Shown: positions 401 to 56,666 of the stretch, in pieces
Numbering within the stretch: position 1 is the first letter of the stretch
Layout: each line of letters starts with the position of its first letter
Assembly (NCBI GenBank): GCA_045631185.1
Contig: JAZQUH010000034.1
Coordinates: 42,916 to 106,915 of the forward strand
Source: Alphaproteobacteria bacterium
GTDB lineage: Bacteria > Pseudomonadota > Alphaproteobacteria > CAAHEQ01 > UBA3637
Length of the DNA: 64,000 nucleotides
Direction of reading: 5' to 3'
Notes under the pieces: model-generated
The model's input: only the letters and a program-made list of their open reading frames with translations
Database searches by the model: none
Told to the model about the DNA's origin: nothing
Translations under genes and position numbers: made by a program

Positions 401-419
401 TCCCACATTGACACATTAT

Positions 420-494
420 TGGGGTGTCGCCAAGCGGTAAGGCAACGGTTTTTGATACCGTCATTCGTTGGTTCGAATCCAGCCACCCCAGCCA
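420..494 (+). tRNA. tRNA-Gln (anticodon UUG)
   Basis: Manual cloverleaf: acceptor TGGGGTG/CACCCCA, D-arm GCC/GGC, anticodon stem ACGGT/ACCGT with loop TTTTGAT (anticodon TTG), T-arm GTTGG-TTCGAAT-CCAGC, encoded CCA. Confidence 0.85.
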
Positions 495-504
495 ATAAAA
501 AAAA

Positions 505-528
505 GTCCCGTTTATCGGGGCTTTTTTT
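505..528 (+). terminator. rho-independent terminator hairpin (GTCCCG-TTTAT-CGGGGC + T7)
   Basis: GC-rich stem followed by a T-run directly after tRNA-Gln. Confidence 0.6.
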
Positions 529-3465: not shown

Positions 3466-3888
3466 ATGGCCATTTTTAAAATAGAGGAAAATTTAGCAAA
3501 AAAAGATTTGCAGAACTCAACAGAGGAAGAAGCAATGGCTGATTTGATGCGGGCTTTTCCGATGATGGTTTGCGGTGATGTTCAGACGATGAGAATGGTT
3601 GTAAATGAAGCTCGTGGTTTATACGAGCCTCAACGTACAGAGTATCTTCGCTCCAGATTGTTACCTCTTGCATTAAAACTAAAAGAACAGGGGAGTGTTT
3701 TTGGTTACCCTTTAGTAACTGATGTTGCTTCTCATTTATATAACTTTTTATCGCTTCAGCAAGTTAATGAAAAGCGTGAATTGGATATCATTTACGGGGA
3801 TGTTTTAACATTGCAAAACATCCTGTGGAAACGCATCAGTGGTGACGGTGGTGAAGAAGGACGCAGAATTCTGGCTCAACTGGTATAA
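3466..3888 (+). CDS. hypothetical protein, first gene of a two-component operon
   Basis: Strong RBS AAGGAGG 6 nt upstream. Ends 9 nt before the response-regulator gene. Confidence 0.45.
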   Translation: MAIFKIEENLAKKDLQNSTEEEAMADLMRAFPMMVCGDVQTMRMVVNEARGLYEPQRTEYLRSRLLPLALKLKEQGSVFGYPLVTDVASHLYNFLSLQQVNEKRELDIIYGDVLTLQNILWKRISGDGGEEGRRILAQLV

Positions 3889-3896
3889 GGATTATA

Positions 3897-4565
3897 ATGA
3901 GTTTGGGGCATTTGTTGGTTGTGGATGATGATAAGCGTTTGCGTCAGTTATTAAAACAATATCTGACCCAAGCCGATTTTACTGTTTCCGTGGCCGAAGA
4001 TGCCATTCAGGCCGAAGAATTGTTTAATCTGTTTTCCTTTGATGTCGTTATCATGGATGTGATGATGCCACATAAAAACGGTGTTGAATACACGCAACAA
4101 TTACGCCAAAAAGGTTTTCAAACGCCGATTTTGATGTTGACAGCCATGGGGGATGTGGCCAGTCGAATTACAGGATTAGAAGCCGGTGCCGATGATTATC
4201 TGCCCAAACCTTTTGATCCCAAAGAATTGTTGTTAAGAATTAAAAATTTAATGAAACATCAAAAAACACCATCAGATACTGTTTGTTTTGGTGATTTTAC
4301 CTATTTCAAATCAAAAAAATCTTTGATTCATCAAAATAAACCTGTTAACTTAACAGGGGCAGAACAGCAACTGTTGGATATTCTAATTCAATCCGTCAAT
4401 ACTGTTTTAACCCGTGAAGAGTTGGCACAAAAAATGCAAACGGATTCCGTACGTACCGTAGATGTACAAATTACCCGTCTCAGACGAAAAATTGAACAAG
4501 ATCACAAACGCCCTGTTTGGATACAGACTGTTCGGGGTCAGGGTTATAAATTAGTGAGGTTATAA
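3897..4565 (+). CDS. OmpR-family response regulator (receiver + winged helix)
   Basis: LLVVDDD...D54-like DVVIMDVMMP...KPF receiver motifs. C-terminal winged-helix pattern. Confidence 0.85.
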   Translation: MSLGHLLVVDDDKRLRQLLKQYLTQADFTVSVAEDAIQAEELFNLFSFDVVIMDVMMPHKNGVEYTQQLRQKGFQTPILMLTAMGDVASRITGLEAGADDYLPKPFDPKELLLRIKNLMKHQKTPSDTVCFGDFTYFKSKKSLIHQNKPVNLTGAEQQLLDILIQSVNTVLTREELAQKMQTDSVRTVDVQITRLRRKIEQDHKRPVWIQTVRGQGYKLVRL

Positions 4566-5884
4566 TGCGAATTTTTAAATATTTAAAACGTAAATTTTTC
4601 CCGCGTCATTTATTGGGGCGCTTTATTTTGATTATTTTATTGCCTATGGTTATATTACAGGCGATGATCGGGATTTACTTTTTTAACAAGCATTGGGATA
4701 CGATCAGCCGTCGTTTGGCAAACGACGTTATCGGTGAAATTCGTCTGATTGCCCATTGGTCGGAAATGCAAGAAGATCCAAGTGCGAAACTAGATGTATT
4801 TGAAAAAAATTTAGGACTTCAGTTAAACTGGAAAGCGGATGAAAAACTCTCTTACGACAAAACAAATGAACGTTTAAGTTCGGCAAAATTACGAAATAAA
4901 ATTGAAGATTTGCCTTATCCCCAAACAACTTATACAAATGAAAAGGGCGAACAGGAAATTGATATCCAATTATCTAAGGGTGTATTAAATATTGTTGTGC
5001 CACGCAAAAGATTTTTCAGCACAACTGTTCCTTCATTTTTATGGTGGATGTTAGGGTCATCCGTTTTATTGTTCACGATTGCTTTTTTATTTATGAAAAA
5101 TCAAGTACGCGCCATTACCCGTTTGGCTAAGGCTGCCGAATTATTCGGTATGGGACAAGAGGTACGCTTCAAACCTGAGGGAGCCTATGAAGTGCGCTTG
5201 GCCGGTCTTTCTTTTATTGAAATGAAAGAAAGAATTGCCAGATATATGAGTGAGAGGACATCTATGTTGGCCGGTGTTTCGCACGATTTGCGAACCCCTT
5301 TGACACGAATGAAATTGGAATTGTCTATGATGGAACCGGACGAAACAACACAAATGTTGCACCAAGATATCAATGAAATGGAAAGTATGTTGACGGGATA
5401 TTTGGATTTTGCCCGTGGCGCCGGCAAAGAAAAAATGGAAGAAATTGATTTGGATTTATTCTTAACCTCTTTGGTGGAAAAATACAAACGGGTCGGTTTT
5501 GGTGTTTCTTTGCATATAGAACAAACCGCAAAAGTAATGGCCAGACCTCATGAACTGATGCGCGCTTTTTCAAATTTAATATCCAATGCGCAAAACTATG
5601 CCACAAAAACAAATGTTTCTATGGGCATTCGGGATGATATGATTCAAGTCACGGTTGACGATAACGGGCCGGGTATTCCAGCAAAAAAACGTGATGAGGT
5701 TTTTAAACCTTTTTATCGGGTGGAACCATCACGCAACAAAAACACTGGTGGCGTTGGTTTAGGTATGACAATTGCCCGTGATACGATTTTATCTCACGGT
5801 GGTGAAATTAAACTGGAAACCAGCCCAATGAAAGGTTTGCGTGTTTTAATCACTTTACCGATAAAGAATGATATAGCGCAATAA
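4565..5884 (+). CDS. EnvZ-like sensor histidine kinase (2 TM, HisKA, HATPase_c)
   Basis: H-box GVSHDLRTPLTRM. N, G1 (DDNGPGIP) and G2 (GGVGLGMTIA) boxes. Start overlaps the regulator's stop. Confidence 0.85.
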   Translation: MRIFKYLKRKFFPRHLLGRFILIILLPMVILQAMIGIYFFNKHWDTISRRLANDVIGEIRLIAHWSEMQEDPSAKLDVFEKNLGLQLNWKADEKLSYDKTNERLSSAKLRNKIEDLPYPQTTYTNEKGEQEIDIQLSKGVLNIVVPRKRFFSTTVPSFLWWMLGSSVLLFTIAFLFMKNQVRAITRLAKAAELFGMGQEVRFKPEGAYEVRLAGLSFIEMKERIARYMSERTSMLAGVSHDLRTPLTRMKLELSMMEPDETTQMLHQDINEMESMLTGYLDFARGAGKEKMEEIDLDLFLTSLVEKYKRVGFGVSLHIEQTAKVMARPHELMRAFSNLISNAQNYATKTNVSMGIRDDMIQVTVDDNGPGIPAKKRDEVFKPFYRVEPSRNKNTGGVGLGMTIARDTILSHGGEIKLETSPMKGLRVLITLPIKNDIAQ

Positions 5885-5936: not shown

Positions 5937-6020
5937 AAGAGGTTCGTATCATGGGATGCGAATGGGATTTTTCACCCCTGGAGGAAAAATCCGTTACTTA
6001 AAAACAAAAAAGGATAAAAA

Positions 6021-6647
6021 ATGAAAACAGTATCATTGAACGCAACAAAGCGTGAAAAAGCTGGCAAGGGGGCCTCTCGGGCTATTCGTCTTAAGGGGTT
6101 TATTCCTGCCGTTATTTATGGGGATAAACAAGCTCCTGAAATGATTGCCATTGAAGAAAAATTCATGGTGGCAGAAATGAATAAAAAAGGTCTTTGGACC
6201 CGTCAATATGAAATCAATGTGGATGGTAAAGAAAAACATTTGGTGTTGTGCCAAGATATTCAAAAACATCCCGTTTCAAATCGCCCGATTCATGCGGACT
6301 TTTTAAGAATTTCAAAAACAGCTTTACTGACCTTGGATATTCCTTTGCAATTTGTTGGTGAAGATGTTGCTCCTGGCTTCAAAAAAGGCGGTGTGTTGAA
6401 CATCGTTCATCGTACGGTTGAAGCAAAATGTACAGCTGATAAGATTCCTGAATTCTTTACGGTTGATTTGTCCAAAGCCGAAATCGGTGATGGCTTTAAC
6501 GCTTTTGACATTCAAATGCCTGAAGGTGTTTCTTTGTCATCTAAAGAAGACTTCACAGTGGCCAGCGTTGTGGCACCACAGGAAGAAACGGCTGCTGCTA
6601 ATACAACTGCTTCTGCCGAAGCCGAAAAGACTGAGGAGAAAAAATAA
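6021..6647 (+). CDS. rplY: 50S ribosomal protein L25 / general stress protein Ctc
   Basis: 208 aa with L25/Ctc N-terminal pattern (KREKAGKGASRAIRLKGFIPAVIYG) and acidic C-terminal tail. Confidence 0.85.
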   Translation: MKTVSLNATKREKAGKGASRAIRLKGFIPAVIYGDKQAPEMIAIEEKFMVAEMNKKGLWTRQYEINVDGKEKHLVLCQDIQKHPVSNRPIHADFLRISKTALLTLDIPLQFVGEDVAPGFKKGGVLNIVHRTVEAKCTADKIPEFFTVDLSKAEIGDGFNAFDIQMPEGVSLSSKEDFTVASVVAPQEETAAANTTASAEAEKTEEKK

Positions 6648-7198
6648 TGAAATTGTTGGTGGGATTGGGCAATCCGGGAACGGAGTATGCAAAAACTCGC
6701 CACAATATGGGATTTCAGGCGGTGGACGAACTTGTCCGCCGCTTTTCCTTTGATGCTTTTAAATCTGAACACAAAGGTTTGCTTGCCAAAGGCCAAATTG
6801 CCAACGAACGTTGCTTAATACTAAAGCCTGAAACTTATATGAATTTGTCGGGTGAATCCGTTCAAAGCGTAATGGCTTTTTATAAAATTCAACCTCAGGA
6901 TATTATTGTTTTTCATGATGATTTGGATTTACCTGTCGGTAAAGTGAAAGTAAAAATTGGTGGTGGCAGTGGTGGTCATAACGGTATCAAAAACATAGAC
7001 TCGCATATCGGTGTCAATTACATGCGTGTCCGCATTGGCGTTGATAAAAATAAAATGATTGATACAGCCAATTATGTATTGGGCAAACCGTCCGCTGATG
7101 AGCAAAAGATTTTGGATGTTTTATTTGAACAAATTGCCCAAAATGTTGAATTATTACTAAAAGGCGATATGTCCGCCTTTATGAATAAAATTAAATGA
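6647..7198 (+). CDS. pth: peptidyl-tRNA hydrolase
   Basis: MKLLVGLGNPGTEYAKTRHNMGF signature. Confidence 0.9.
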   Translation: MKLLVGLGNPGTEYAKTRHNMGFQAVDELVRRFSFDAFKSEHKGLLAKGQIANERCLILKPETYMNLSGESVQSVMAFYKIQPQDIIVFHDDLDLPVGKVKVKIGGGSGGHNGIKNIDSHIGVNYMRVRIGVDKNKMIDTANYVLGKPSADEQKILDVLFEQIAQNVELLLKGDMSAFMNKIK

Positions 7199-9216: not shown

Positions 9217-9441
9217 TTACTTTATTTTTTGTTGATCTTGTTTTATGGCTGTACTCTTATGGACGCAAATCCGTTCGGGTTTTTGTTGAGTGGGATTTTC
9301 AAATTTCACAAGGTCTTTTTTTTTCTTTAAATTATTTACAGAATAAACAATACAATTTGGATAATTCATTTTAAGTCCTTTTAAGTTTCTTGTATTGTAG
9401 TATTTTTTATTTCAAAAGTCAACTTTTTTCAACTAAATCGC

Positions 9442-9469
9442 TTGATAAAGTGATAAAGTTTGCTAGTGT
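9442..9469 (+). promoter_or_regulatory. sigma70 promoter TTGATA-16-TAGTGT; family-specific promoter shared with the 23825 and 53020 copies
   Basis: cttgataaagtgataaagtttgctagtgtgggga versus cttgacaaaggcgataaagttcgctagtatgggga at the other two loci. Confidence 0.6.
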
Positions 9470-9503
9470 GGGGATAATTAATAAATAATAAAGGGAGATA
9501 AAA

Positions 9504-10070
9504 ATGCAAAATTTAAGAAAAACAAACGAAACAGGCCGTTCTATGCTTGAAATGTTGGGCGTTCTGGCTATCATTGGCGTTTTAAGTGTTGCTGGTGTTG
9601 CGTGGTTTCATCCAGGGCCAGGCTGGAATAATTCGGGGTATCTTTTACTAAAATATGAAGGTTGTGGATGGCCATATGATGGAAAACTTGGGACGGATAA
9701 AAAAACGTGTTGCAGTGTTGAGGGCTATGCTTGGAGGGATGCGTATGTTGGCTATAATGATGTAAAAACTCAAATTTGCGGATGTCCTATGCCTAATGAT
9801 GGTACTACACATGCACCGGTATTGGGAACTGACGGTAAAACGTGTTGCAGAGATGGATTGACTTGGTATGATGCTAATCGTAATTATACTGCTGCAAGTT
9901 TATATTGTGGTGGATGCCCAGAAGATGGAAAAGTAGGAAAAGACTCTAAAACCTGTTGTAAAGATGGAAAATATTGGCATGATTATGAGGTTGGTTATTT
10001 CTATGAAAGTGAAGTTTGCCAAGGAATATACCCCCCCCCGCCCAAATCGGACGGGGGATTTTTAATATAA
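9504..10070 (+). CDS. type-IV-pilin-like (class III signal) cysteine-rich repeat protein, short paralog
   Basis: N-terminus MQNLRKTNETG|RSMLEMLGVLAIIGVLSVAG with Gly(-1), Glu(+5) and a hydrophobic helix. Strong GGGAG RBS. Three ~42-aa Cys-rich repeats (CGCP..DG..G.D.KTCC.DG..W.D). C9 tract at 10031-10039. Confidence 0.7.
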   Translation: MQNLRKTNETGRSMLEMLGVLAIIGVLSVAGVAWFHPGPGWNNSGYLLLKYEGCGWPYDGKLGTDKKTCCSVEGYAWRDAYVGYNDVKTQICGCPMPNDGTTHAPVLGTDGKTCCRDGLTWYDANRNYTAASLYCGGCPEDGKVGKDSKTCCKDGKYWHDYEVGYFYESEVCQGIYPPPPKSDGGFLI

Positions 10071-23753: not shown

Positions 23754-23824
23754 TTTAATCCTCCTTTTTTATTTTAAGATAAGCTTTTTTTATTTTTTAT
23801 CAAGTCTATTTTTTGTTTTTGCGC

Positions 23825-23853
23825 TTGACAAAGGCGATAAAGTTCGCTAGTAT
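23825..23853 (+). promoter_or_regulatory. near-consensus sigma70 promoter TTGACA-17-TAGTAT, identical to the copy at 53020
   Basis: ttgacaaaggcgataaagttcgctagtat. Identity with the 53020 locus runs on for about 780 bp downstream. Confidence 0.65.
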
Positions 23854-23887
23854 GGGGATAAATGAGCAAACAGGGAGACTCTAAAAA

Positions 23888-25297
23888 ATGATTTTAAACC
23901 ACGATAAAGGTATAAATAAAGGAACCTTGTACACACACACACACACATTTAATTTTGAAAAGATAAAATCCGCCGAAGGCGGACGTTCCATGTCCGAGAT
24001 GTTGGGGGTATTGGCCATCATTGGTGTATTAAGTGTATCGGGTATTGCGGGTTATCGCCACGGTATTACCAAACACCGTGCCAATATCACATTAAACGAT
24101 TCACGCATGGCGTATATGGAATCCAAAACACGCCCAAATGTGCCTGACCACGCATGGCATGATGTTTCGCATAACTTTGATTCAGGCAAAACATTCCAAA
24201 TGTTGCGTGATAAAAAGGGCAACAATTATGTCAAAGTCATGGAGGTTGATGAAAGGGTTTGTCGTCAGATTTTAAAAATGTCCGTATCGGGCAGGTTGTC
24301 ATTTTTAACCGAAAACGGGGAAAATAAAACCGATTGTAGCGAAGAAAATAATATCGTGATATCATGGGATGGTTTGGGCAAACCCAGCGATTGTGAAATA
24401 AAAGCCGATTGTGGTGAAAATTTTGCGGGTATTTGTACAAATCAAGGCCATTGTCGCTTATGTGATACGGCAACGGAACGGATGAATTCGGATGGCACGG
24501 CGTGCGAATGTGACCCCGAAAAAGCTGTATCATGCACAGATGGTGGCGAAAGCACATGGTGTTGTGGTGCCGGCCTTATCTGTGATAAAGAAAATCAAGG
24601 CTGTAAAGCGGGCACGGGCGGATGTCAATACAACTTTACGCAACAGGTTTATACCCGTTCGTCCAATTGTTCGTATATTATATCCACGCAAGAACAAACC
24701 CGTTCATCCAATTGCCATTACACGGTTCGTGATTATGTGATTGAAGGTTCTTTGCACGGTGTGGAAATGACGCAAATCCAAGGATGTCCATCGGGTGAAT
24801 ATTGTTTGCTCGGCTATTTTGATAATGAATGTACATCATCCATCAACCGTGGGGATGTGGGGGCATCGGGCGCCGAAGACGTTTATGGCGTTTGTTTAAA
24901 ACGCACCATGAACGGCGGTACATGTGACGTCAGCACGGTATCCACCGCCTTTATGGATGAAGTTCAAGGATGTCCATCGGATGAGTATTGTTTAATCAGC
25001 TATTTTGACGAAGAATGTACATCATCCATCAACCGTGGTGATGTGGGTGCAACGACGCCCGAGCAAGTTTATGGTGTTTGTTTAAAGCGCACCATGAATG
25101 GTGGCACATGTGATGTAGCCGAAATTGCCGAAGGCAGTTTAACCGAAGTGCAAGGTTGCCCCGCGGGTCAATATTGTTATTTAAAATGGCAAGGAAGCGA
25201 TTGTTCCACAGCCATCAATAAAGGCGATATAACTGGGCCGATGTTCGGTGCGTGTTTGGAACGCACATCCAACAATGCCCAATGCCCGATAAAATAA
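23888..25297 (+). CDS. type-IV-pilin-like Cys-rich modular surface protein, long paralog 1, with prepilin-type leader in frame
   Basis: Leader MILNHDKGINKGTLYTHTHTFNFEKIKSAEGG|RSMSEMLGVLAIIGVLSVSGIAG with Glu(+5) and a hydrophobic helix. GGGAG RBS. Conserved N-terminal globular and EGF-like Cys module. Three ~60-aa C-terminal repeats (QGCPSGEYCLLGYFDNECTSSINRGDVG...VCLKRTMNGGTCDV). Confidence 0.7.
   Translation: MILNHDKGINKGTLYTHTHTFNFEKIKSAEGGRSMSEMLGVLAIIGVLSVSGIAGYRHGITKHRANITLNDSRMAYMESKTRPNVPDHAWHDVSHNFDSGKTFQMLRDKKGNNYVKVMEVDERVCRQILKMSVSGRLSFLTENGENKTDCSEENNIVISWDGLGKPSDCEIKADCGENFAGICTNQGHCRLCDTATERMNSDGTACECDPEKAVSCTDGGESTWCCGAGLICDKENQGCKAGTGGCQYNFTQQVYTRSSNCSYIISTQEQTRSSNCHYTVRDYVIEGSLHGVEMTQIQGCPSGEYCLLGYFDNECTSSINRGDVGASGAEDVYGVCLKRTMNGGTCDVSTVSTAFMDEVQGCPSDEYCLISYFDEECTSSINRGDVGATTPEQVYGVCLKRTMNGGTCDVAEIAEGSLTEVQGCPAGQYCYLKWQGSDCSTAINKGDITGPMFGACLERTSNNAQCPIK
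23931..23947 (+). repeat. (CA)8 dinucleotide tract (17 nt) inside the leader-encoding 5' region of the pilin-like gene
   Basis: acacacacacacacaca. The paralog at 53126-53138 has a 13-nt tract. The 4-nt difference changes the reading frame relative to the upstream ATG. Confidence 0.9.
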
Positions 25298-25364
25298 TTT
25301 AAATTTTAATGCCTGAACAACAAGAACAATATAAATAAATAACTTAAATAGAAAGGAGTATAAA

Positions 25365-25826
25365 ATGAAACAATCAACAAAAACATTATCCATTATCTTT
25401 GCCATCACATTGGGGGTTAGCACATCAACCATGGCCTATACATCCTGTGTGGGTGGAACGGAAATCACGGCCAATGCCCACACGGATGCGGATGCCCCCG
25501 ATACATGCACCGCGGATCATTGCCCCAGCCCCGCCAAAAGCTTTTGTATCAGCAATGTGAAATTGAATTGGTGGAGTGCCTTTAATTGGTGTCAAAGCAA
25601 TGGTGGCACTTTGGCTGCATTTAATTCTGCTTGTCCCAATACACCGGTGCGTAGCAATAATACGGCGGGGGCTTGTCCCGCTTTACAAGGTGTTGGTGAG
25701 AGTAAATACTATTGGACATCCATGGGATCGGGAACAAGCGCCGCCCTCCTCGTGAATCTTTCCTCCGGTGCTGTCTACTTCGACGTCCGCAATTACGCCA
25801 GCGCCATCTACGCCCTGTGTGAGTAA
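25365..25826 (+). CDS. small secreted C-type-lectin-like (CTLD-like) protein, partner of pilin-like paralog 1
   Basis: Signal peptide. KLNWWSAFNWCQSNGGTLAAFNS resembles the CTLD W.eA..yC...Gg.Las motif. C-terminal ...AIYALCE resembles the CTLD ...fiCE end. AAAGGAG RBS. Paralog at 54591. Confidence 0.45.
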   Translation: MKQSTKTLSIIFAITLGVSTSTMAYTSCVGGTEITANAHTDADAPDTCTADHCPSPAKSFCISNVKLNWWSAFNWCQSNGGTLAAFNSACPNTPVRSNNTAGACPALQGVGESKYYWTSMGSGTSAALLVNLSSGAVYFDVRNYASAIYALCE

Positions 25827-45465: not shown

Positions 45466-46158
45466 TTATTTATTTTTCAATAAATAATTTCGTCCGTCCG
45501 GCAAAGATCCGTTCAGGGCGTTTTTTTGTAAAAAGAATCCGGTTAAAAAAAGTCCGTCTTTTAAGTCGGTTGTTTTAATGACTTCAGTGTTTTCTTGCCA
45601 TAAAAATCGGGGCAGTGGTAATAATTTATCACGATAGGGTAAGCCTTTTTCATAACTGACGGCTCGTCCGGTTTTGGGTGATACAAAAGCCAAGTTATTT
45701 TTATCGCCACCTCCGGCACAATCCGAAAAATCCAATCCAAAGCCCAATTCCTGTAACAAATTTAATTCAAAAATAATATAATGTTTTACATAATCTTTGT
45801 TGTTTAAGTTATTGATTAAAATAAAAACTTCATCATATAAATTAGAATAAGATTGGCGTTCCGGTAAAGTTTTATTTAATAATTCACAAATACATCTGAT
45901 GCAGCAAAGCCGTGGCCAATCATCCATGTAAAAACCAGAGATTGATTTTAAATTTTCCAAATAAAAGGTTCCCAATTGTTCGCTTAGGCGGGCTTGCCAT
46001 CTGCCGTTGACAATGTCTGCGGGTTGTGGGGCGGATTTGCCTTTATAAACGCCTAAATAACGCCCGTTTTCTTTTGTTAGTAAAGAAACGATAAAAGATT
46101 TTTCTCCCAGCTTTTTAGCCCCCAAAACAATAGCGTTATTGTACTTTTGTTCAGGCAT
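45466..46158 (-). CDS. recO: DNA repair protein RecO
   Basis: N-terminal OB-fold pattern (AIVLGAKKLGEKSFIVSLLTKENGRYLGVYKG). 230 aa, immediately downstream of era. Confidence 0.75.
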   Translation of the reverse strand: MPEQKYNNAIVLGAKKLGEKSFIVSLLTKENGRYLGVYKGKSAPQPADIVNGRWQARLSEQLGTFYLENLKSISGFYMDDWPRLCCIRCICELLNKTLPERQSYSNLYDEVFILINNLNNKDYVKHYIIFELNLLQELGFGLDFSDCAGGGDKNNLAFVSPKTGRAVSYEKGLPYRDKLLPLPRFLWQENTEVIKTTDLKDGLFLTGFFLQKNALNGSLPDGRNYLLKNK

Positions 46159-47032
46159 TAAAATTTAATCCCCATTGTTGGTATTGATTGACGTCATCCA
46201 CCCAATCTTGGCGTACTTTTACAAATAAGAACAGGTTGACTTTTTTGCCCAATTGGCGTGTCATTTCCATACGGGCTGCTTCGCCGATTTTTTTAATCAT
46301 TTTACCGCCGGCACCCAAAATGATGGATTTATGGGCGGTACGGGAAACAATGATGTTTTGTTCGATACGGATGGATTGTTTTTGTTCTTTAAAGGAAACA
46401 GGTTCTACTGTTAGTTGATAGGGCAGTTCTTCTCTTAAATATAAAAACAGCTTTTCCCGTGTAATTTCGGCACAAAAAAGTTTATCGGGTAAATCAGTCA
46501 GTTCTTCATCGGAAAACATCCAAGGTCCATTGGGTGCATTTTCCAATAAATAATCTTTTAATTCTTTAACGCCTTCGCCTGTTTGGGCGGATACACAAAA
46601 AACAGTTTTGATATTTTTAATATCGTTCAAAGTGGTCAGTCTTTTTATCAGTTCATCTTTTTGAAGCAAATCAATTTTATTAAAGACCAAAATGACGGAT
46701 CCTTTTATTTTTTGTAAGATGGAAATATCCGTTTCTGTCAATCCTTTTTTGGCATCCATAACCATCATTTGCAAATCAGAATCGGCTGATTCTGTCCAAG
46801 CACAATCAAGCATAGCTCTGTCCAATCGGCGTTGCGGTTTGAAAATGCCCGGCGTATCCACCAACACCAATTGAGTTTCGTTTTCGGTTAAAATACCACG
46901 TACACGGGATCTTGTTGTTTGAACTTTGGGTGAAACAATGCTTATCTTTTCCCCAATCAACCGATTGATAAGGGTTGATTTGCCGACATTTGTTTTTCCG
47001 ATAATGGCCACAAAAGCGAATTTAGTTGTCAT
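46151..47032 (-). CDS. era: GTPase Era
   Basis: G1 GKTNVGKST, G2/G3 and C-terminal KH domain. Confidence 0.9.
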   Translation of the reverse strand: MTTKFAFVAIIGKTNVGKSTLINRLIGEKISIVSPKVQTTRSRVRGILTENETQLVLVDTPGIFKPQRRLDRAMLDCAWTESADSDLQMMVMDAKKGLTETDISILQKIKGSVILVFNKIDLLQKDELIKRLTTLNDIKNIKTVFCVSAQTGEGVKELKDYLLENAPNGPWMFSDEELTDLPDKLFCAEITREKLFLYLREELPYQLTVEPVSFKEQKQSIRIEQNIIVSRTAHKSIILGAGGKMIKKIGEAARMEMTRQLGKKVNLFLFVKVRQDWVDDVNQYQQWGLNFNA

Positions 47033-53003: not shown

Positions 53004-53019
53004 AAAATCCAACAATCCC

Positions 53020-53048
53020 TTGACAAAGGCGATAAAGTTCGCTAGTAT
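53020..53048 (+). promoter_or_regulatory. near-consensus sigma70 promoter TTGACA-17-TAGTAT (copy of 23825-23853)
   Basis: Identical 29-nt promoter. Identity with the 23824 locus starts exactly at cTTGACA. Confidence 0.65.
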
Positions 53049-53125
53049 GGGGATAAATGAGCAAACAGGGAGACTCTAAAAAATGATTTTAAACCACGAT
53101 AAAGGTATAAATAAAGGAACCTTGT

Positions 53126-53138
53126 ACACACACACACA
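53126..53138 (+). repeat. (CA)6 dinucleotide tract (13 nt), two units shorter than at 23931
   Basis: gtACACACACACACAttt. Puts the upstream RBS-served ATG (53083) out of frame with the pilin-like ORF. That frame stops at 53155-53157 after 24 codons. Confidence 0.9.
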
Positions 53139-53180
53139 TTTAATTTTGAAAAGATAAAATCCGCCGAAGGCGGACGTTCC

Positions 53181-54575
53181 ATGTCCGAGATGTTGGGCGT
53201 ATTGGCCATCATTGGTGTATTAAGTGTATCGGGTGTTGCGGGTTATCGCCATGGTATTACCAAACACCGTGCCAATGTTACATTAAACGATTCACGCATG
53301 GCGTATATGGAATCCAAAACACGCCCAAATGTGCCTGACCACGCATGGCACGATATTTCGCATAACTTTGATTCGGGTAAATCATTCCAAATGTTGCGTG
53401 ATAAAAAGGGCAACGATTACGTTAAAGTCATGGAGGTTGATGAAAGGGTTTGTCGTCAGATTTTAAAAATGTCCGTATCGGGCAGGTTGTCATTTTTAAC
53501 CGAAAACGGTGAAAATAAAACCGATTGTAGTGAAGAAAATAATATCGTGATATCATGGGATGGCTTGGGCAAACCCAGCGATTGTGAAATAAAAGCCGAT
53601 TGTGGTGAAAATTTTGCGGGTATTTGTACAAATCAAGGTCATTGTCGCTTATGTGATACGGCAACGGAACGGATGAATTCGGATGGCACAGCGTGTGAAT
53701 GTGACCCCGAAAAAGCGGTATCATGCACGGATGGTGGCGAAAGCACATGGTGTTGTGGTGCCGGTCTTATCTGTGATACAGAAAACAAAGGCTGTAAAGC
53801 GGGCGATGGAAAATGTACCTATTATTTTAACGAATCGGATGAAACATCAGAATACACCACCGATTGCAGTTATACCCTATCCGATGAAAGCAATGTTGAA
53901 TATTACTATTCAAATTGTTATTATACCATTGGATCAACACCGTCGATGACCAGTCAGGTTATCGGTAATACCACGCAATCATTATCACATCCGAATATAG
54001 GTTCTTCGACCCCCCGTGGCGGATGCCCCCCGAATCAATATTGTACATTGTTGTGGACGGGAACCCCCATTGAAACCCAGGGAAACAACTATATTTTTGC
54101 ATCCAAACCCACATCGGCATCGGCGGGAATGACGGGTATTTTATATGGCAAATGTCAAACATTATCGGGTAATGATTCAACGCCATTGACGGAAAACAAA
54201 AACGGATCGGGTCAAATGGTGGGCAATGGCGCCCGTGGCGGATGTCCGGAAAATCAATATTGTTTATTGATGTGGAAACAACAATCATGGACGGGAACCG
54301 GCGAACCCAAACTTACCGCATCGGATACGGGTGAAATGTATGGTAAATGCCAAATGTTATCCGGCAATGATGCCACCCCAAAAATTGCCGAAGGATCAAC
54401 ATTTACACGGTATAGGGTGGGGCAAGGATGCCCGATTGGGCAATATTGCCGTTTATTGTGGAAAAATGAAAGTTGTACAAATCTGACGGCTTCGGATATG
54501 GGTGGGTTATCGGGTGTTTGTTTATCCATGTCCGGCCCAACGCCGGGTACGATTGATTGCCCTTATAAACAATAA
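53181..54575 (+). CDS. type-IV-pilin-like Cys-rich modular surface protein, long paralog 2, with leader region out of frame (phase-OFF or 5'-truncated)
   Basis: First 205 aa about 95% identical to paralog 1. C-terminal module replaced by three different repeats (GGCPxNQYC.L.W...YGKCQ.LSGND). The in-frame sequence upstream of ATG 53181 reads ..EGGRSM but reaches a stop at 53112-53114 with no start codon. Confidence 0.65.
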   Translation: MSEMLGVLAIIGVLSVSGVAGYRHGITKHRANVTLNDSRMAYMESKTRPNVPDHAWHDISHNFDSGKSFQMLRDKKGNDYVKVMEVDERVCRQILKMSVSGRLSFLTENGENKTDCSEENNIVISWDGLGKPSDCEIKADCGENFAGICTNQGHCRLCDTATERMNSDGTACECDPEKAVSCTDGGESTWCCGAGLICDTENKGCKAGDGKCTYYFNESDETSEYTTDCSYTLSDESNVEYYYSNCYYTIGSTPSMTSQVIGNTTQSLSHPNIGSSTPRGGCPPNQYCTLLWTGTPIETQGNNYIFASKPTSASAGMTGILYGKCQTLSGNDSTPLTENKNGSGQMVGNGARGGCPENQYCLLMWKQQSWTGTGEPKLTASDTGEMYGKCQMLSGNDATPKIAEGSTFTRYRVGQGCPIGQYCRLLWKNESCTNLTASDMGGLSGVCLSMSGPTPGTIDCPYKQ

Positions 54576-54590
54576 AAGAAAGGAAAAAAC

Positions 54591-54986
54591 ATGAAAAAAA
54601 ATTTAATGATTTTATCTGTGCTTGTTTTGGTTATGTCCACGCCGGCGTTGTCGGCGACTTGTGCCAACGGTGCGGGAACGCAGGTGATAGGTGTGGATGG
54701 CGAAACATATTGTCGTTCCAATGTGAATATGAATTGGTGGAGTGCGTATGCATGGTGTGATGCCGCCAATATGACATTGGTTTCATTGGACAGATGTAAT
54801 GGTAAAAATGGCAATATTACGGGGGAAGTTGCCTGTCCCAATTTTAAAGGGACGGGGGGCTCTGTGACTTGCTGGACATCTTCTGTGCCAAACAGCTCTT
54901 TCGCCTTCAACGTGAATCTTTCTTCCGGTGCTGTTTTCAACAGCCACACCCGTAACTACTACAGCCTCTACGCCCTCTGTGAGTAG
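54591..54986 (+). CDS. small secreted C-type-lectin-like protein, partner of pilin-like paralog 2
   Basis: Signal peptide. NMNWWSAYAWCDAANMTLVSL CTLD-like motif. C-terminus ...SLYALCE. 15-nt gap after the upstream gene with AAAGGAAA RBS. Confidence 0.45.
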   Translation: MKKNLMILSVLVLVMSTPALSATCANGAGTQVIGVDGETYCRSNVNMNWWSAYAWCDAANMTLVSLDRCNGKNGNITGEVACPNFKGTGGSVTCWTSSVPNSSFAFNVNLSSGAVFNSHTRNYYSLYALCE

Positions 54987-55005
54987 AGTTCTCGGCTTTT
55001 TAAAT

Positions 55006-55023
55006 ACTGCCCCGATTTATCGG
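55006..55023. terminator. bidirectional terminator hairpin (CCCCGA-TTTA-TCGGGG)
   Basis: Between convergent lectin-like and comF genes. Same TTTATCGGGGC core as the terminators at 505 and 1762. Confidence 0.5.
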
Positions 55024-55031
55024 GGCCGAAT

Positions 55032-56556: not shown

Positions 56557-56631
56557 GACCCTATCATCTAATGGTTAGGATACAGCCCTCTCAAGGCTGG
56601 TATACGGGTTCAAATCCCGTTAGGGTCGCCA
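56557..56631 (+). tRNA. tRNA-Glu (anticodon CUC)
   Basis: Acceptor GACCCTA/TAGGGTC. Anticodon stem CAGCC/GGCTG with loop CTCTCAA. T-arm CGGGT-TCAAATC-CCG. CCA encoded. Confidence 0.7.
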
Positions 56632-56636
56632 ATTTA

Positions 56637-56666
56637 AAAGTCCCCGATTTTTCGGGGCTTTTTATC
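56637..56666. terminator. terminator hairpin (TCCCCGA-TTTT-TCGGGGC + T-run)
   Basis: After tRNA-Glu and convergent with the pyk end. Confidence 0.55.

Follow-up and report, generated by a model that had tools for sequence, protein, structure and literature searches.

Switching of genes ON and OFF by short repeats, together with gene conversion between paralogues, is textbook biology in a few mucosal pathogens (Neisseria, Haemophilus and Helicobacter). In Neisseria, the two paralogous pilus-associated adhesin genes pilC1 and pilC2 carry a poly-G tract in the signal-peptide region. The opa genes of the same genus harbor CTCTT repeats in the leader-coding sequence (PMC3745409). In the bab genes of Helicobacter pylori, 5-14 CT units located about 56 bp from the start codon, in the signal-sequence region, place the gene IN or OUT of frame; babA, babB and babC occupy separate loci with near-identical 5′ ends, and gene conversion within the genome produces chimeras and transfers the repeat from one paralogue to another (PMC4552749). 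Here we describe two loci encoding large pilin-like proteins, which share a 5′ module of about 790 bp, in a 64,000-nucleotide stretch of alphaproteobacterial DNA (contig JAZQUH010000034.1 of assembly GCA_045631185.1, positions 42,916 to 106,915; hereafter the window). An original prediction, made from the letters of this DNA, had interpreted the pair as a constant head with unrelated 3′ cassettes, belonging to a recombinational antigenic or adhesin-specificity variation system.

The explanation that we favor, with a probability of roughly 65%, is that the loci are two phase-variable, gene-converted operons for alternative pairs of a pilin-like adhesin and a lectin. In each of these paralogous two-gene operons, the first gene would encode a modular protein resembling type IV pilins and the second a small secreted protein resembling C-type lectins. 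The former would consist of four parts, namely a leader with a G/RSMxE class III signal (the slash marks the cleavage site), a pilin helix with β-sheet, a Cys-rich linker and a Cys-rich tail. The 790-bp front end, which extends from the promoter through the linker, would be homogenised between the loci by intragenomic gene conversion, presumably since a common pilus or assembly machinery has to accommodate both proteins. Each operon would be set independently by slipped-strand mispairing at an (AC)n repeat in the leader-coding region, where n of 5, 8 or 11 would keep the gene in frame and any other n would lead to a translation stop before the signal-peptide cleavage motif. In this genome, the operon with tail A would be ON through (AC)8 and the operon with tail B OFF through (AC)6, and the loss of one unit from copy 2, or a change of one unit in copy 1, would flip the state. 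The outcome would be a stochastic display of adhesin A, adhesin B, both or neither, and the cell could probably choose in this way which adhesin is displayed. Throughout the text, W1 and W2 denote window copy 1 (tail A) and window copy 2 (tail B), P-numbers denote relative proteins, and L-numbers denote fetched loci.

The shared 5′ module and its dinucleotide repeat

Global alignment, a repeat finder and blastn all recovered a single block of high identity between the two loci, the elements of which are as follows.

23824..24613, + strand: 5′ module copy 1 (790 bp), with promoter, 5′ untranslated region, leader with (AC)8, pilin-like module and Cys-rich linker module
53019..53804, + strand: 5′ module copy 2 (786 bp), the partner of 23824..24613
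23825..23853, + strand: promoter of copy 1, sigma-70-type TTGACA-17-TAGTAT (promoter scan, 10/12 matches)
53020..53048, + strand: promoter of copy 2, with the same sequence as the copy 1 promoter (promoter scan)
23872-23877, + strand: Shine-Dalgarno sequence AGGGAG of copy 1, ahead of ATG 23888 and the same at both loci
23931..23946, + strand: (AC)8 tract within the sequence coding for the leader peptide, its first unit 43 nt after ATG 23888; open reading frame (ORF) in frame (ON)
53126..53137, + strand: (AC)6 tract; ATG 53083 out of frame, with TAA at 53155-53157 after 24 codons (OFF)

The block is 96.8% identical and contains 25 single-nucleotide polymorphisms (SNPs) in 786 aligned bases, 17 of which occupy third codon positions. 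The first 183 bp are free of SNPs, non-coding DNA included, and the sole indel in the block is the 4-bp difference between (AC)8 and (AC)6. Identity starts at cTTGACA, upstream of which the flanks are unrelated between the loci, and stops at ...GGCTGTAAAGCGGGC, the identity in 60-bp windows being 87-100% before this point and 40-68% after it. The near-identical module with scattered SNPs claimed by the original prediction was hence recovered, and both the alignment and the promoter scan place its beginning at the -35 element as claimed. The abrupt 3′ end was also borne out, since pairwise alignment of the two loci shows a breakpoint that is sharp within a few bases, with no gradual decay, about 8 bp further downstream than first placed. 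The prediction was right about the block itself and left unmentioned that its only indel is a frame-shifting dinucleotide repeat. The 38-nt promoter pattern is present at just these two places, and a promoter homologous to that of copy 1 was found upstream of a third pilin-like gene, at 9436-9477, and also in L007.

Apart from the two (AC)n tracts, the 64 kb contain no dinucleotide repeat of at least 5 units, and no start codon lies between the tract and the codons of the G-R-S cleavage motif. The number of units varies among relatives. The tract is (AC)5 in L007/8 and (AC)11 in L013-15, all of which are OFF, and it is interrupted in L002, which is ON. Counts taken from DNA are 5, 6, 8 and 11 units, and those inferred from leader peptides are about 9 and 11 or more. 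Among members of single 90% protein clusters, ON forms are represented by P0207 (...LYTHTHTFNF...), P0204 (...LYTHTHTHLIS...) and P0229 (...YTHTHTHTHTHV... / ...LYTHTHTHTHTHV...), and P0198, P0205 and P0005 were called solely from a start downstream of the tract, consistent with the OFF state. A repeat in the 5′ coding region on whose length the reading frame depends, a polymorphic number of units, and the occurrence of both ON and OFF alleles together point to phase variation by a simple sequence repeat (SSR). The OFF copy 2 was also considered as a pseudogene, and this was rejected, its 464-codon ORF being intact and under purifying selection, with a ratio of nonsynonymous to synonymous divergence (dN/dS; divergences within the window are Nei-Gojobori estimates) of 0.09-0.35.

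The competing explanation that survives best is that translation starts at an internal ATG (MSEMLG...), so that the (AC)n tract would lie in an untranslated or dispensable leader and be neutral, and both genes would be constitutive. Gene callers indeed begin P0007, P0011, P0198, P0205 and P0212 at the internal ATG, 6 nt upstream of which lies a Shine-Dalgarno-like AAGGCGGA. However, the G-R-S residues encoded upstream of this ATG are nearly invariant in the family, and G-R-S-M is kept in relatives with synonymous codon changes; because of this synonymous variation among lineages, the G-R-S codons are translated. The MSEM... product would also be devoid of the cleavage site at Gly-1 and would have its Glu at +3 instead of +5. 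Furthermore, the upstream ATG is the one preceded by the strong Shine-Dalgarno sequence AGGGAG, and ON versions with long in-frame leaders are present in five lineages. We therefore consider an internal start with a neutral tract rather unlikely, and note as a lesson for annotation that gene callers start OFF alleles at the internal ATG, which hides both the leader and the switch.

The SSR is followed by a GC hairpin, ATCCGCCGAAGGCGGAC, at 23968-23984 and 53159-53175, which encodes S-A-E-G-G-R right before the cleavage site and overlaps the Shine-Dalgarno-like sequence of the internal ATG. The minus strand of this hairpin scores as terminator-like, and the element is kept in L007 and missing from the MEKG-type 5′ module. 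When the 5′ region was folded as RNA, the z score was about 0, and the only local structure, a 6-bp hairpin at 23969-23983 and 53160-53174 with a z score of -1.1, is not statistically unusual and is assigned no function.

Pilin-like genes of the P0002/P0012 lineage have no (AC)n tract. In these genes a G8 versus G9 run is located about 110 nt upstream of the start codon (4461-4468 in L003, 4458-4465 in L004 and 73-81 in L005), which is the sole G/C run of at least 7 in 16 kb and may act as a promoter-level phase switch.

Divergence of heads and tails

Synonymous divergence (dS) between W1 and W2 differs strongly on the two sides of the right edge of the block. In the head, dS is 0.155 and nonsynonymous divergence (dN) is 0.014, giving a dN/dS of 0.09, whereas the tail is saturated, with dS over 1.6 and dN of 0.88. 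The W1 and W2 heads are 97% identical. The same pattern was observed in another lineage, where the head of the tail-B protein P0007 is 100% identical in amino acid sequence to the heads of the tail-A proteins P0198 and P0208, and these three heads are 88-90% identical to the window heads. Among the metagenome relatives, heads group by strain and tails group by type, with type A comprising W1 and P0001-4 (88-96% amino acid identity) and type B comprising W2, P0007, P0008 and P0012 (87-94%).

Across strains, the tails are more conserved (88-97% amino acid identity) than the heads (37-93%), and the heads are far more diverged than the tails they are attached to, as in W1 compared with P0002 (59% in the head) or with P0003/4 (37%). 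In pairs that would be regarded as orthologous, dS is higher in the head than in the tail (0.38 versus 0.15 for W1-P0001, 0.41 versus 0.11 for W2-P0007, and 1.73 versus 0.375 for W1-P0002), and head and tail therefore have separate histories. At least three head types and two re-assorting 5′ leader types, the (AC)n type and a short MEKG/RSM type, are combined with the two tail types across strains, and the breakpoints of the chimeras vary (about 24613, 24500 and 53600). Because dS jumps from head to tail, and because heads group by strain and tails by type, gene conversion is preferred over plain duplication, and the 5′ module appears to undergo concerted evolution by gene conversion together with mosaic recombination between strains. 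The original prediction that gene conversion keeps the 5′ module homogeneous is thus supported, and the shuffling between strains for which it proposed to look is present. Its description of a constant head and a variable tail holds only for this one genome, and the comparison between strains shows the opposite, with variable heads and conserved tails.

The R64 shufflon (PilV) and Neisseria pilE/pilS provide known cases of type IV pilus components in which the N-terminus is constant and the C-terminus is exchanged, with a change in binding specificity or antigenicity. PilV of R64 is varied through site-specific inversion between sfx repeats by Rci, and pilE/pilS through one-way conversion with silent, promoterless cassettes as donors. 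A programmed recombinational cassette system of either kind, in which a constant expressed head receives alternative 3′ cassettes, would fit the constant head, the differing tails and the sharp junction in the window, as well as the chimeric combinations of head and tail across strains. However, both loci are complete expression units with an identical promoter, an identical Shine-Dalgarno sequence and a full ORF, and the genes lie in direct orientation 29 kb apart. Searches of the 64 kb with both operons (tblastn and blastn) returned no further head, tail or lec fragments, promoterless or otherwise, no inverted repeats are present at the two loci, and no recombinase was found among the 20 ORFs scanned. 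The varying position of the junction among chimeras does not match a programmed exchange either, and a head dS of 0.155 speaks against frequent exchange. The cassette-type antigenic variation put forward in the original prediction is therefore not supported, and we judge it to be unlikely.

A plain ancient duplication, in which the head is merely more constrained and neither conversion nor switching takes place, would agree with the low dN/dS of 0.09, which indicates purifying selection on the head. However, constraint on the protein cannot cut synonymous divergence tenfold (0.155 versus over 1.6) and leaves unexplained the 183 SNP-free bases that include non-coding DNA. The grouping of heads by strain and not by paralogue, and a sole indel that is a frame-shifting SSR polymorphic in relatives, also stand against such a history, which is very improbable. 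Least credible of all is an assembly artefact, in which the 790-bp repeat, exceeding short-read length in what appears to be a metagenome assembly contig, was mis-joined to give a chimeric head-tail or chimeric flanks: the 25 SNPs and the SSR difference between the copies indicate two real sequences, the head-tail A and head-tail B architectures recur in many independent assemblies, and at most the linkage of flank to tail could have been swapped.

In L007, which comes from another strain, the homologous unit spans window positions 53019 to 55005, its left edge coinciding exactly with that of copy 2, and its flanks are unrelated. In L009, where ~300-500 corresponds to window 418-507 and 2645-2710, the tail-B operon closely follows a tRNA-Gln gene with a homologue at window 420-494, and it also follows a palindromic element (GTCCGTGTACAG...TACACGGAC), which in the window is found at 2645-2710. 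The chromosomal location of the operon-sized unit thus varies from strain to strain. A terminator-like element (...AAAAGTCCCGTTTATCGGGGCTTTTTT) recurs in the window at 488-527, 1740-1779 and 56625-56664, the first and third directly after tRNA genes and the second not. The spacer between the W1 ORF and lecA (25299-25331) shows a 33-bp match of 94% identity to 46137-46168 on the opposite strand, possibly by chance in AT-rich DNA.

Pilin-like proteins and their lectin partners

The products of the two operons and the segments encoding them are listed below.

23888..25297, + strand: copy 1 ORF, 469 amino acids, with a 32-amino-acid leader, class III motif EGG/RSMSEMLGVLAIIGVLS, pilin-like helix and β-sheet, Cys-rich module and tail A
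24614-25297, + strand: tail A, two short repeats and three repeats of about 62 amino acids
25365..25826, + strand: lecA, 153 amino acids, secreted C-type-lectin-like, 67 nt after the copy 1 ORF; hypervariable NNC stretch at about 25735-25826
53181..54575, + strand: copy 2 ORF from the internal ATG, 464 amino acids, with the codons of the G-R-S cleavage motif just upstream at 53172-53180
53805-54575, + strand: tail B, two short repeats and three long Cys-rich repeats
54591..54986, + strand: lecB, 131 amino acids, secreted C-type-lectin-like, 15 nt after the copy 2 ORF; hypervariable NNC stretch at about 54895-54986
55009-55026: GC-rich hairpin after lecB

The N-terminus of the large proteins, EGG/RSMSEMLGVLAIIGVLSVSGIAGY, has the layout of a class III (prepilin) signal, with Gly at -1, Glu at +5 and a hydrophobic helix, and G32, R33, E37 and the hydrophobic positions are conserved at 90% or more in 55 relatives. 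The long N-terminal helix is packed on an antiparallel β-sheet, as in the pilin fold, and distant matches with a common N-terminal helix bear PF08805/PF05307 or PF07963. By their N-terminal layout, the proteins look like modular pilins, in which C-terminal modules are grafted onto a pilin module. The family is uncharacterised and has no Pfam or NCBIfam model. A phmmer search with tail A against 1.84 billion representatives returned 82 proteins or clusters, making the tail a rare module, and most of the full-length proteins among those 82 share a G-R-S/T-x-x-E pilin-like N-terminus. The copy 2 ORF is 100% identical to P0212, a protein of an NCBI assembly. A scan of genome contigs identified only one distant locus, L001, from the metagenome-assembled genome (MAG) of Alphaproteobacteria bacterium SIG53. 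In the JGI metagenomes, an exact 25-mer search found nothing and a profile search matched the P0013 contig alone. The window itself has a G+C content of 37%, and its gene content as read from the ORF translations includes PTS-Ntr-like genes, secA, sodB and tspO and would fit an alphaproteobacterium, the 20 larger ORFs that were scanned being mostly housekeeping.

Each tail contains three Cys-rich repeats, as originally described; tail A holds 2.2 copies of a 186-bp unit, and the repeat finder recovered repeat families D2 and D6. The 3′ parts had been called unrelated, which does not hold, as a collinear alignment spans tails A and B from end to end (26% amino acid identity, E value 2e-15); they are old homologues. 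The description of the Cys-rich linker module as EGF-like likewise finds no support in Pfam or NCBIfam. Of the functional claim, a role in adhesin specificity is plausible, given a pilin-like module, a Cys-rich tail and a cognate C-type-lectin-like partner.

The partner gene lecA shows a weak match to Pfam Lectin_C (E value 0.0018). Its AlphaFold2 model has a predicted local distance difference test (pLDDT) score of 85.6, and the Foldseek matches are C-type-lectin-like domains, including the C-terminal domain of Bd2740, Lcl, CD94 and CLEC5A. In the relatives, the type of lec gene always tracks the type of tail. The tails and lectin partners thus appear to form old, cognate pairs, and we infer that each tail would present its cognate lectin.

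A third pilin-like gene at 9504-10070 encodes 188 amino acids with the N-terminus MQNLRKTNETG/RSMLEMLGVLAIIGVLS and has no Pfam match. It contains three different Cys-rich repeats (CGCP..DG..GKTCC), and its promoter at 9436-9477 is 86-87% identical to those of the large genes. A C9 run at 10031-10039, in the last codons of this gene, is the sole G/C homopolymer of at least 8 in 64 kb, and a change in its length would alter or extend the C-terminus. In L001, a 387-amino-acid pilin-like protein with a C-type-lectin-like region fused at its C-terminus is encoded at 5965-7128, and the adjoining gene at 3694-5700 encodes a 668-amino-acid Cys-rich repeat protein with repeats around a CP..KP motif.

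At the 3′ ends of lecA and lecB, the final ~30 codons consist of an invariant scaffold (..A.F.VNLSSGAV....R......YALCE) alternating with hypervariable codons, almost all of which are NNC. In 12 lecA orthologues with at least 75% identity, 13 hypervariable positions have a mean of 5.8 residues per column, compared with 1.4 elsewhere, and only 1/145 of the hypervariable residues falls outside the set reachable from AAC (P = 2e-7). L011 and L012, which represent one strain, show 1 difference in about 9.3 kb of flank and 12 in two patches of lec. The lec genes also display codon indels and conserved DNA past the stop codon, and the stretch is seen in L006, L007 and L011/L012 as well. Because of the NNC codons confined to the AAC-derived set, the contrast between L011 and L012, the codon indels and the conserved sequence past the stop codon, the 3′ ends of lecA and lecB would fit the target of a diversity-generating retroelement (DGR) with an AAC-rich template, possibly a remote one. 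The candidate template repeat would match ...GCCTTCAACGTGAATCTTTCYTCCGGTGCTGT...TACGCCCTSTGTGAG. DGR targets with the C-type lectin fold include Bordetella phage Mtd and Treponema TvpA, which the AAC-derived NNC stretch of lecA and lecB resembles, and targets remote from their retroelement are known (PMC5758913). Unlike in those systems, neither the window nor the fetched loci contained a template repeat or a reverse transcriptase, and the likeness concerns lec and not the duplicated module. Viral contigs searched for the lec variable-region scaffold and for lec relatives gave nothing. The one related example that came up is a preprint on Bacteroides type V pili (bioRxiv 10.1101/2024.11.15.621889).

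If the lec variability is taken together with the switch and the conversion, one can imagine that the tip adhesins of a type IV pilus in this uncultured, AT-rich alphaproteobacterium are varied in three layers, comprising (AC)n-switched modular pilins, gene conversion, and lectins hypermutated by a remote DGR. In such a system, gene conversion would match the pilin module and the switch between the loci and would re-assort leader, head and tail across strains; the cognate lectin would be hypermutated in trans, and the tail would serve as the adaptor presenting it on the pilus. We offer this only tentatively, as a possibility that we regard as less than even. If the lectin partners are truly DGR targets, type-IV-pilin-like proteins would be linked to retroelement-driven diversification.

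Several observations weigh against the favored explanation of two phase-variable, gene-converted operons. Curated pilin hidden Markov models from Pfam and NCBIfam did not match the two large proteins at E ≤ 1, and the name pilin-like was chosen because there is no match to a curated signature and only the distant, helix-sharing ones. No type IV pilus machinery or prepilin peptidase was found among the 20 larger window ORFs scanned. The paired assemblies L003/L004, L007/L008 and L013/L014 are 100% identical, without tract differences, and probably derive from the same samples. Slippage in tracts of 5-8 dinucleotide units may be only modest, and switching within a population is a prediction from the comparison of alleles. 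The Shine-Dalgarno-like sequence of the internal ATG lies inside a 6-bp hairpin, and tract-independent translation of a leaderless product may make the OFF state leaky. With regard to conversion, the head dS of 0.155 places the last homogenisation of most of the head far in the past, which makes conversion an evolutionary process and not an evidently programmed one. Finally, the metagenome proteins with identical heads need not come from one genome.

Relation to known systems

At the level of the protein, the outcome at these loci is the same as that of the R64 shufflon and of pilE/pilS, although the inversion sites, recombinase and silent cassettes of those systems were not found at the loci, among the ORFs scanned or in the 64 kb. 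Modular pilins have been described as a class for Streptococcus sanguinis PilB/PilC and others (PMC8179133). Compared with S. sanguinis PilB/PilC and with CofB of enterotoxigenic Escherichia coli, the tails in the window are rare and without a Pfam signature, and the lectin is a separate, co-transcribed protein. No layer of phase variation or paralogue conversion is described for PilB/PilC or CofB.

The likeness to opa and pilC lies in the presence of multiple complete expression loci, each of which would be switched by a repeat in the leader, and in recombination between the loci. However, the repeat unit and the protein families differ, and opa comprises about 11 loci with hypervariable loops and not two C-terminal modules. 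With bab, the window shares a dinucleotide repeat, here (AC)n of 5-11 or more units beginning 43 nt after the ATG, a homogenised 5′ module, and chimeric combinations of head and tail. The Bab proteins, however, are outer-membrane β-barrel adhesins of an epsilonproteobacterium and have no sequence relationship to the type-IV-pilin-like proteins of the window; the part that differs between the window copies is the C-terminal half together with the downstream lectin gene, and here both copies bear the repeat. By these resemblances, H. pylori bab and Neisseria opa/pilC appear to be the closest analogues. The same contingency logic would then operate in an unannotated pilin-like family of uncultured, probably host- or sewage-associated Alphaproteobacteria, and would provide an example of how a pilus could swap its binding modules while the part that fits the filament stays unchanged.

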